Assembly (NCBI RefSeq): GCF_057098645.1
Contig: NZ_CM169472.1
Strand: one strand, 5' to 3'
DNA length: 64,000 nucleotides
This document shows positions 1 to 36,818 of the stretch, piece after piece. The notes under the pieces were generated by a model that was given only the letters and a program-made list of their open reading frames with translations, searched no databases and was not told where the DNA came from. Made by a program: the position numbers and the translations under genes. Positions within the stretch are counted from its first letter, which is position 1; every line of letters begins with the position of its first letter.

Positions 1-406
1 TTACGTGATTATTAAGTCGCCTTTTCAGGGCGATATAATCCACGCGCTTTTCCTTTACGTAATACTCAAGCCAGTAGGTGAGCGCATCGCCAACCGTTAC
101 GGGCTTTAACGCTTCCTGTACGGTGTAATTCATCTCATGACGTGGATTTTTCCCCTCAGCCAGCCATGTGCGACACTGTGCGGCTTTTTCCCTAGCTGCT
201 TTCAGGCTCAGATCAGGATAACTTCCCAGCTTAATGCGTTCGGGTCGTGTCTCCCTTCCCGTTCCGGCCCTGTATGTGAAATACCAGGTCAATTTCCCTG
301 ATGTTAAATATTTCACGCTCAGGTTTCCGCCATCACTATAAAACGTGTTTTTCTCCGCTGGCTTACCATGAAGTTTCCTTAGCAAGGTATCGCTCAGTTT
401 GTTCAT
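1..406 (-). CDS. Tyrosine recombinase / phage-type integrase, P4-like; only the N-terminal ~135 codons are in the window and the 3' end lies beyond the window start
   Basis: Minus-strand reading frame from ATG at 404-406 to position 1 has no stop. Translation MNKLSDTLLRKLHGKPAEKNTFYSDGGNLSVKYLTSGKLTWYFTYRAGTGRETRPERIKLGSYPDLSLKAAREKAAQCRTWLAEG... fits the arm-binding N-terminal domain pattern of P4-family integrases. Absent from the ORF track because it is truncated by the window edge. Confidence 0.6.
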   Translation of the reverse strand, partial: MNKLSDTLLRKLHGKPAEKNTFYSDGGNLSVKYLTSGKLTWYFTYRAGTGRETRPERIKLGSYPDLSLKAAREKAAQCRTWLAEGKNPRHEMNYTVQEALKPVTVGDALTYWLEYYVKEKRVDYIALKRRLNNHV

Positions 407-441
407 TGCTCTGCTCACGTTTTACCCCCTCTTTACGAAAA

Positions 442-465
442 AGTGACTACACCAGTGACTACACC
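442..465. repeat. Perfect 12-bp tandem direct repeat AGTGACTACACC x2 in the integrase upstream / junction region
   Basis: Read directly: agtgactacacc at 442-453 and again at 454-465, about 40 bp upstream of the integrase start codon. Confidence 0.9.
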
Positions 466-615
466 GATCGTTGCACAAAGGGCTACAACGTGAAACAAGC
501 TGGAACAAGGAAAATCACAAATCTGTTGATAATCAAAAACATAATGCACAGCCTGAAACATTATGAAACAGCAAAAAACACTAAATGATAAAATGCTGTT
601 ATTCTTAACCCGCTG

Positions 616-8711: not shown

Positions 8712-9431
8712 ATGAACACTATCGTATTTGTGGAAGATGATGCGGAAGTCGGTTCACTGATTGCCGCGTACCTGGCAAAACATGATATGCAGGTTACCGT
8801 AGAGCCGCGCGGCGACCAGGCCGAAGAAACCATTTTGCGAGAAAATCCGGATTTGGTGTTACTCGACATCATGCTACCAGGCAAGGACGGCATGACCATT
8901 TGTCGTGATTTACGCGCAAAGTGGTCTGGACCGATTGTTCTTCTAACCTCTCTCGATAGCGATATGAACCACATCCTGGCACTGGAAATGGGTGCCTGCG
9001 ACTATATTCTCAAAACGACGCCCCCTGCTGTTTTGTTAGCGCGTTTACGTTTGCATTTGCGTCAGAATGAGCAAGCCACGCTGACCAAAGGTCTTCAGGA
9101 AACGTCACTGACTCCCTACAAAGCCCTGCATTTCGGCACGTTGACCATCGATCCTATCAACCGCGTAGTCACCCTGGCTAACACTGAAATCTCGCTCTCG
9201 ACAGCTGATTTCGAATTATTGTGGGAATTAGCTACCCATGCCGGGCAAATCATGGACCGCGATGCATTGCTGAAAAATTTACGCGGCGTCAGTTATGACG
9301 GACTGGATCGTAGCGTGGACGTGGCTATTTCGCGGTTAAGAAAAAAACTGCTCGATAACGCCGCAGAACCTTATCGCATTAAAACTGTGCGTAACAAAGG
9401 CTATCTTTTTGCGCCTCATGCATGGGAATAA
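8712..9431 (+). CDS. rstA: Two-component response regulator RstA (OmpR family)
   Basis: ORF 8652-9431; start taken at the internal Met MNTIVFVEDD, giving 239 aa; receiver plus winged-helix domains. Confidence 0.9.
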   Translation: MNTIVFVEDDAEVGSLIAAYLAKHDMQVTVEPRGDQAEETILRENPDLVLLDIMLPGKDGMTICRDLRAKWSGPIVLLTSLDSDMNHILALEMGACDYILKTTPPAVLLARLRLHLRQNEQATLTKGLQETSLTPYKALHFGTLTIDPINRVVTLANTEISLSTADFELLWELATHAGQIMDRDALLKNLRGVSYDGLDRSVDVAISRLRKKLLDNAAEPYRIKTVRNKGYLFAPHAWE

Positions 9432-9434
9432 GCG

Positions 9435-10736
9435 ATGAAAAAACTGTTTATCCAGTTTTACCTGTTATTGTTTGTCTGCTTCCTTGTGATGTCTCTGCTG
9501 GTTGGGCTGGTGTACAAATTTACCGCCGAACGCGCGGGCAAACAGTCGCTGGATGATTTGATGAACAGTTCGCTGTATCTGATGCGCAGCGAATTGCGTG
9601 AGATCCCCCCACACGACTGGGGTAAGACGCTGAAAGAGATGGATTTAAATCTCTCTTTCGATCTGCGTGTCGAGCCACTGAGTAAATACCATCTTGATGA
9701 TATTTCCATGCACCGACTGCGTGGCGGCGAAATTGTCGCCCTGGACGATCAGTACACGTTTTTGCAGCGTATCCCGCGCAGCCACTACGTGCTGGCAGTT
9801 GGTCCTGTTCCTTATCTTTATTATCTCCATCAGATGCGATTGCTGGATATCGCCCTGATCGCTTTTATTGCTATTTCCCTCGCCTTTCCGGTGTTTATCT
9901 GGATGCGTCCGCACTGGCAGGATATGTTAAAACTGGAAGCAGCGGCGCAACGATTTGGCGATGGGCATCTCAATGAACGTATCCACTTTGATGAGGGTTC
10001 GAGCTTTGAACGACTTGGTATCGCATTTAACCAGATGGCGGACAATATCAACGCCTTGATTGCCAGCAAAAAACAGCTTATTGACGGTATCGCTCACGAA
10101 CTGCGAACACCGTTAGTGCGCCTGCGTTATCGACTGGAGATGAGCGATAACCTGAGCGCCGCCGAATCCCAGGCGTTGAATCGCGATATCAGTCAACTTG
10201 AAGCTTTAATTGAAGAGCTGCTGACTTATGCCCGACTCGATCGCCCACAAAACGAGCTTCATCTTAGCGAACCAGACCTGCCGTTGTGGCTATCAACGCA
10301 TCTGGCAGATATTCAGGCAGTAACGCCCGATAAAACGGTACGGATAAAAACGCTCATGCAAGGCCATTATGCGGCGTTGGATATGCGCTTAATGGAGCGC
10401 GTGCTGGATAATTTGCTCAATAACGCCCTGCGCTACTGCCATTCAACGGTTGAAACCAGCCTGCTACTGTCGGGGAATAGAGCGACATTAATTGTTGAGG
10501 ATGATGGCCCAGGGATTGCCCCAGAAAACCGCGAACATATCTTTGAACCTTTTGTGCGCCTCGATCCCAGCCGGGATCGCTCAACCGGCGGCTGCGGGCT
10601 GGGGCTGGCAATTGTCCACTCTATAGCACTGGCAATGGGCGGTACGGTTAATTGTGACACCAGCGAACTGGGTGGTGCCCGCTTCTCGTTTAGCTGGCCG
10701 TTATGGCATAACATCCCGCAATTTACCTCTGCTTGA
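9435..10736 (+). CDS. rstB: Sensor histidine kinase RstB
   Basis: 433-aa ORF with TM segments, HAMP domain, H-box (IAHELRTPL) and ATPase domain; directly downstream of rstA. Confidence 0.9.
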   Translation: MKKLFIQFYLLLFVCFLVMSLLVGLVYKFTAERAGKQSLDDLMNSSLYLMRSELREIPPHDWGKTLKEMDLNLSFDLRVEPLSKYHLDDISMHRLRGGEIVALDDQYTFLQRIPRSHYVLAVGPVPYLYYLHQMRLLDIALIAFIAISLAFPVFIWMRPHWQDMLKLEAAAQRFGDGHLNERIHFDEGSSFERLGIAFNQMADNINALIASKKQLIDGIAHELRTPLVRLRYRLEMSDNLSAAESQALNRDISQLEALIEELLTYARLDRPQNELHLSEPDLPLWLSTHLADIQAVTPDKTVRIKTLMQGHYAALDMRLMERVLDNLLNNALRYCHSTVETSLLLSGNRATLIVEDDGPGIAPENREHIFEPFVRLDPSRDRSTGGCGLGLAIVHSIALAMGGTVNCDTSELGGARFSFSWPLWHNIPQFTSA

Positions 10737-10778
10737 CACTACGCGCACGGTGGTCAAGTCACCACCACTGTGCTATAA

Positions 10779-13141
<2,363 letters not shown>

Positions 13142-33929: not shown

Positions 33930-36818
<2,889 letters not shown>

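Follow-up and report, generated by a model that had tools for sequence, protein, structure and literature searches.

The int-attR end of a probable PICI-family satellite integrated in tqsA of an O145:H28-like Escherichia coli chromosome

The left edge of the window analyzed here, i.e., the whole 64,000-nt stretch of contig NZ_CM169472.1 (assembly GCF_057098645.1), most probably represents the int-attR end of a PICI-family satellite that occupies positions 1-602 and is integrated site-specifically into codons 43-46 of tqsA; from the sequence comparisons presented below, we put the probability of this reading at roughly 0.88. Within the window, the evidence for a PICI consists of 135 integrase codons and one att arm; alpA, the replication genes, the cargo and attL were read in relatives. 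The element in this genome may be of the 11-kb EcCI042 type or of the 15-kb capsid-forming type. The literature already contains the att site, this family of elements and the disruption of tqsA, and the locus is an ordinary instance of this known arrangement. The original prediction, that the edge of an integrase-bearing mobile element severs the 5' end of tqsA, is supported. For annotation, the label of a PICI-family int-attR end fits the region better than that of a prophage or unknown island, and tqsA is best recorded as a split gene, predicted to be restorable by excision, rather than as a 5'-deleted one. The features of the locus are summarized in Table 1.

Table 1. Features at the left edge of the window, with the evidence for each
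Feature	Position	Strand	Evidence
Satellite int, 5' part	1-406	minus	open frame and domain matches
Element-side arm of attR (one attP arm)	407-593		identity in related loci
Two tandem 12-mers, AGTGACTACACC	442-465	plus	repeat search
att core / crossover region, TGCTGTTAT	594-602	plus	direct repeat common to attL and attR
tqsA' (3' 301 codons, 44-344)	595-1500	plus	alignment to K-12
Predicted excision junctions: attP ...GATAAAATGCTGTTATATATAAC...; attB ...TTATTGCTGTTATTCTTAAC...			

On the minus strand, a reading frame begins at ATG 404-406 and continues to base 1 without a stop, as had been predicted, and the peptide quoted with that prediction was reproduced. The frame is a genuine integrase N-terminus and not a chance ORF, because the Pfam domain Arm-DNA-bind_3 (PF13356) covers residues 4-91 of the fragment with E=8.8e-19 and the PHROG family phrog_1, annotated as 'integrase', matches it with E=5.8e-15; its expected membership of a recombinase family is thereby borne out. 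The fragment comprises codons 1-135 of about 405, the remaining ~812 nt lying to the left of the window, and for homologues PGAP places the start at GTG 416-418, four codons before the ATG. O26:H11 11368 and PE164 encode 409-aa integrases that agree with the fragment at 134 of 135 residues, and the integrase of EcCI042 agrees with it at 131 of 135. Full-length homologues combine Arm-DNA-bind_3 with a Phage_integrase domain (PF00589), which spans residues 214-375 of the O26:H11 11368 protein (E=1.1e-15). The description of the enzyme as 'P4-like' stands in part: the arm-binding domain is of the P4 type, but the similarity is distant, the match to NCBIfam PRK09692 being weak (E=2e-6) and reaching 51.8 bits against a cut-off of 434.

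An ungapped comparison with K-12 revealed identity from window position 594 rightward (TGCTGTTATTCTTAACCCG...) and none leftward. A 25-kb search of complete E. coli genomes found many unoccupied genomes that align from exactly the same base, which falls within the interval of 590-600 where the junction had been anticipated. The 9-bp core starts with the last base of tqsA codon 43 (base 594) and reaches into codon 46; the 3' part of the gene is thereby separated from the promoter, the start codon and the first 43 codons. The longest ORF available for a restart runs from GTG 616, which is codon 51, to position 1500. Its length of 294 codons and the in-frame stops 5' of it (TGA 586-588 and TAA 589-591) agree with the earlier reading of this DNA, and the gap between the int and tqsA ORFs, given there as 210 bp, measures 209 nt (407-615). 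The K-12 reference state given there was also correct: TqsA is a 344-aa protein, and mdtU and mdtJ, with no integrase, lie upstream of its gene.

Both ends of the element were read in four relatives: O26:H11 11368 (L001), PE164 (L002), O145:H28 12E115 (L004) and strain 042 (L015). In all four, tqsA codons 1-46 were found 11,034-15,531 bp leftward, at the far end of the element (core-to-core sizes of 11,034, 11,492, 14,877 and 15,531 bp), and the core was present as a direct repeat at both junctions, as a search of the far end had been proposed to reveal. When the two halves were joined in silico at this repeat, each relative yielded a 1,035-nt gene encoding a 344-aa TqsA. The rejoined protein is the K-12 protein in O26:H11 11368, PE164 and O145:H28 12E115, where every one of the 10-15 nucleotide differences is synonymous, and that of strain 042 departs from K-12 by a single residue, L108I. 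Since the halves rejoin, tqsA in these relatives is split and not deprived of its 5' end; the view that the 5' end had been replaced gives way to one of displacement, seen in all four relatives with both ends read. The nucleotide differences of the window's tqsA' from K-12 are likewise all synonymous, and a hybrid of the window's 3' part with the 5' part from O145:H28 12E115 encodes a TqsA with 0 amino acid differences from K-12.

Read on the opposite strand, the core is ATAACAGCA, which is listed as the att sequence of EcCI042 and EcCIK1516, both with tqsA as their integration site (Fillol-Salom 2018, PMC6092414, Table S1). EcCI042 is an 11-kb element of E. coli 042 (FN554766.1:1832521-1843554), and EcCIK1516 measures 11.4 kb (PMC6092414). 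In the RefSeq record of strain 042, the published EcCI042 end at 1843554 corresponds to window position 602, the last base of the core. PICIs have been described as using a specific att site that is not used by prophages (Fillol-Salom 2018), and this is what was found at tqsA, because the core equals the published PICI att, all 13 int-bearing occupants read are satellites, and a nucleotide search of bases 1-615 against 50,697 phage records returned no match. Rfam and tRNA scans of positions 1-2000 returned nothing; therefore, the integrase is not of the tRNA- or sRNA-targeting kind. The other published hallmarks of Gram-negative PICIs are a one-directional order of int, alpA and replication genes, a length near 10-15 kb with neither lysis nor tail genes, and induction by helper phages leading to high-frequency transfer (Fillol-Salom 2018). 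Counted against the PICI reading is the behavior of EcCI042 itself, for which no transfer was detectable after mitomycin C in strain 042, its own host.

The 1-1600 junction was searched in 5,426 complete E. coli genomes and was present in 246 of them at a coverage of at least 80%; among the matches listed, none was recognizable as O157:H7. Fourteen contexts were read, comprising the four complete genomes and ten public assemblies (L005-L014) selected by an exact match to the 294-aa product. This integrase lies at the truncated tqsA in 13 of the 14, in satellites of 11-15.5 kb. In each of these 13 the integrase has 409 aa and its gene is next to that of an AlpA-type regulator (PF05930); alpA is situated some 1.2 kb beyond the left edge of the window and is followed by a D5-type primase or an AAA_25/RepA helicase. 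Two of the 13 int-bearing loci are too short for cargo typing, and all 11 with readable cargo carry a DUF4222 gene, the primase or helicase, SSB and PerC. A head module (HK97-type capsid, prohead protease and portal) is present in seven of the 11; in O26:H11 11368 and O145:H28 12E115, for which the reading extended over the whole element, genes for head closure, a head-tail connector, HNH, TerS and TerL were also found. In the other four, a lambda-E-type capsid gene is accompanied by a head-decoration gene and a Nu1-type or no TerS, as in EcCI042 and EcCICFT073. The annotations of the relatives contain no tail or lysis genes and none of the P4 genes sid, psu, delta, cnr and epsilon.

Several cargo annotations in the relatives are frameshifted or partial, at 8911-9092 and 18016-18573 of L001 and at 10374-10915 and 11548-11947 of L002; those of PE164 include TerS and the head-decoration gene. 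Some of the O26 11368 and PE164 island copies may be defective. The single context with no integrase at the junction (L008; GCA_002155195.1, MUAB01000007.1, positions 9351-10000) comes from a K-12-like genome, in which K-12-identical selU-ylbG-ylbI-ybbD is followed by ~25 nt, a divergent attR arm (TTAACTACACC twice), the core and tqsA'. The junction is thus a remnant or the product of a rearrangement, and one of its breakpoints coincides with the arm repeats. Islands at the tqsA site occur in enterohaemorrhagic and enteropathogenic lineages with perC and rdgR on board, and PICI-encoded PerC and RgdR have been reported as LEE activators (PMC6092414).

The arm between int and the core is AT-rich (38.5% GC) and identical in eight related loci, in all of which the same core and tqsA' follow; compared with EcCI042, one of 186 nt is different. 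The int promoter must also lie within this arm, and a scan of 300-800 on either strand found no sigma-70 consensus promoter, whether for int or directed outward to tqsA'. In O26:H11 11368, PE164 and O145:H28 12E115, the tandem 12-mers recur on both arms in the same orientation, at distances from the core of 151/139 nt on its left in attR and 82/94 nt on its right in attL. This tandem pair holds the only plus-strand copies of the 8-mer ACTACACC in the 64-kb window. Alignment of the two arms revealed a ~60-nt module (about 440-498) in direct orientation on both, composed of the two 12-mers, then CGwTCGkTGCAC, then ACAACGTGrAACAA. We infer that the tandem 12-mers are putative arm-type integrase binding sites. 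Two IHF-consensus matches with one mismatch each, at 519-531 (minus) and 531-543 (plus), were not counted as evidence. In relatives, PGAP annotates a 60-aa 'hypothetical protein' (WP_001332680.1) at 406-588 on the plus strand, wholly over the attR arm, in which the arm repeats are read as SDYTSDYT. As an outward-reading gene, this ORF is a probable overcall; substitutions among its alleles are mostly non-synonymous.

Two other accounts of the element itself were considered. The original prediction left room for a prophage and likened the integrase to that of P4, and an ordinary temperate prophage or a P4-type satellite at the tqsA site would be consistent with the P4-type Arm-DNA-bind_3 domain and with the D5/primase gene, of a P4-like kind, in some relatives. 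We regard this as extremely improbable, and that part of the prediction was not upheld: relatives carry PICI or cf-PICI satellites at the published tqsA att site, the complete ones are all 11.0-15.5 kb long and have no annotated tail or lysis genes, and the nucleotide search of phage records was empty. No integrase from a phage record exceeds 50% identity to the fragment, and a 16.5-kb 'induced prophage' record is the source of one of the two top hits. In addition, the Int, AlpA and Pri-Rep proteins of PICIs are only distantly homologous to P4 proteins (PMC6092414). That the window instead holds a decayed or rearranged remnant, in which the int-attR end alone survives, excision no longer occurs and tqsA is permanently dead, is decidedly unlikely, given that a full-length integrase and an AlpA-type regulator are present in 13 of 14 contexts, that the 135 codons are intact and match full-length copies at all but one residue, and that the arm and core are the same as in intact elements. 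What speaks for such a remnant is the presence of one third of int in the window, the frameshifted cargo genes of several relatives and the example of L008, where the attR arm and tqsA' are joined to ybbD-selU with no integrase.

A further alternative concerns the gene rather than the element, namely that transcription originating in the element drives expression of a truncated TqsA, initiated at GTG 616 or ATG 625, whose function is retained or altered. The 294-codon ORF has stayed open, public assemblies include it among their gene calls, and only synonymous differences separate it from K-12; this synonymous-only pattern, however, is equally expected from a recent insertion. The scan of 300-800 offers no sigma-70 consensus promoter for such transcription, inspection by eye found no Shine-Dalgarno-like sequence just 5' of 616 or 625, and the product would lack part of the N-terminal fold as resolved by cryo-EM (PMC9475539; PDB 7nb6). 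In that structure, helix H1 (T7-F29) is the major cytoplasmic pentamer contact and helix H2 extends over A31-W57 (PMC9475539). The break at codons 43-46 falls inside H2, so that the insertion costs tqsA' all of H1 and the N-terminal half of H2, together with the start codon and the native promoter. In the relatives, PGAP labels tqsA' as a pseudogene without its N-terminus. Expression of a working truncated protein is, on balance, highly improbable. Because the promoter, start codon, H1 and half of H2 are lost and PGAP assigns a pseudogene, tqsA is likely inactive while the island is integrated. Of the two outcomes suggested originally, inactivation is the likely one, and re-promotion found no support in the promoter scan. 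With the AI-2 exporter gene interrupted by these islands in 246 of 5,426 genomes, a deficiency in tqsA that lasts as long as integration probably affects ~4.5% of complete E. coli genomes.

EcCICFT073 and the cf-PICIs provide the analogy from which a course of events can be proposed for the satellite at tqsA. In EcCICFT073, int-attP is sufficient for integration, int is required for excision and transfer, and alpA is induced by helper phages and then activates the island (PMC6092414). The island would thus remain integrated in tqsA until a helper phage turns on alpA. The N-terminal domain of Int would bind the ACTACACC arm repeats, with core sites around TGCTGTTAT also bound, and recombination within the core would excise the island. 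Once excised, it would replicate via its primase or RepA helicase and be packaged into helper-derived capsids in the case of the EcCI042 type, or into its own HK97-type capsids fitted with helper tails in the case of the cf-PICI type. tqsA would be off during integration, and excision would restore it.

Such a cycle corresponds to regulated gene integrity, in which an insertion disrupts a domain and precise excision restores the ORF; in silico, both were found at this locus. The disruption of the tqsA Pfam domain by a tight integrase clade was reported by Mageeney 2020 (PMC7192596), whose supplement lists Eco33.11.tqsA, Eco557.15.tqsA and Eco282.16.tqsA. If the middle numbers are sizes, they equal 11, 15 and 16 kb and agree with the sizes found in relatives. 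The idea of a switch was already proposed bioinformatically in that study (Mageeney 2020, PMC7192596). Were it true, quorum-signal export and biofilm behavior would be coupled to phage activity. We consider two further possibilities unlikely, namely that the locus acts as a helper-phage-triggered reversible AI-2 export switch and, separately, that this genome harbors a satellite variant with unseen cargo. The undecayed state of the split tqsA was examined as a sign of a maintained switch and set aside as uninformative, TqsA being equally invariant in unoccupied K-12 and L005-L014 having been chosen by exact protein match.

The chromosome surrounding the satellite closely resembles that of O145:H28 12E115: window positions 616-64000 are 99.97-100% identical to it and colinear, except for a 1,195-bp IS5 in uidC. 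The element part, 1-593, differs from the 12E115 island at 26 positions, whereas only bases 47 and 194 distinguish it from the O26/PE164 allele, with K120 in place of N as the result of one of them. The chromosome therefore carries an island allele unlike that of its nearest sequenced relative. Near-identical backbones with different satellite alleles at the same att site suggest independent acquisition or recombination. The exact int allele of the window, defined by bases 47 and 194, was absent from the 5,426 complete genomes, and JGI metagenome contigs yielded no copy of this private allele in two scans by exact pattern, the first of which used a pattern for the base-194 variant only; with no exact match, no full copy of the window's int allele was readable.

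The 1-615 region had been held to be the only site of a foreign element in the window, which proved incorrect, as the IS5 copy at 18750-19944 is a second one. It constitutes a 1,195-bp insertion relative to both O26 11368 and O145:H28 12E115, carries an IS5-type transposase ORF of 326 aa at 18818-19798 (plus strand) and splits the glucuronide porin gene uidC. Elsewhere in the window, internal repeats were observed at ~36146-36771, where the colinear 12E115 genome has rsxC; they appear as off-diagonal blastn self-hits whose offsets are multiples of 96 bp.

Among known systems, P4 shares with the satellite at tqsA the combination of Arm-DNA-bind_3 and tyrosine recombinase architecture seen in the full-length homologues; in contrast, the homology of the integrases is only distant, and the element gene content and att site are not alike. 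For regulated gene integrity (PMC7192596), tqsA is there a bioinformatic candidate, and we found no experiment on regulated excision or restoration. EcCICFT073, the experimentally characterized E. coli PICI, resembles the EcCI042-type relatives in int, alpA, pri-rep and the pair of capsid-E and head-decoration genes; it differs in that its genes are cited as c1499-c1501 and that, for the tqsA site, Table S1 names only EcCI042 and EcCIK1516. The cf-PICIs, with EcCIEDL933 as prototype, are similar in the int-alpA-rep order followed by a head module in seven of 11 relatives with no annotated tail or lysis genes, and cf-PICIs and classical E. coli PICIs have four attB sites in common (Alqurainy et al., 10.1101/2022.09.08.507074). 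With EcCI042 and EcCIK1516, the satellite shares the target gene tqsA, the 9-bp core and the right boundary at window position 602, whereas the private changes at bases 47 and 194 of the int allele and the O145:H28-like chromosome set it apart from EcCI042.
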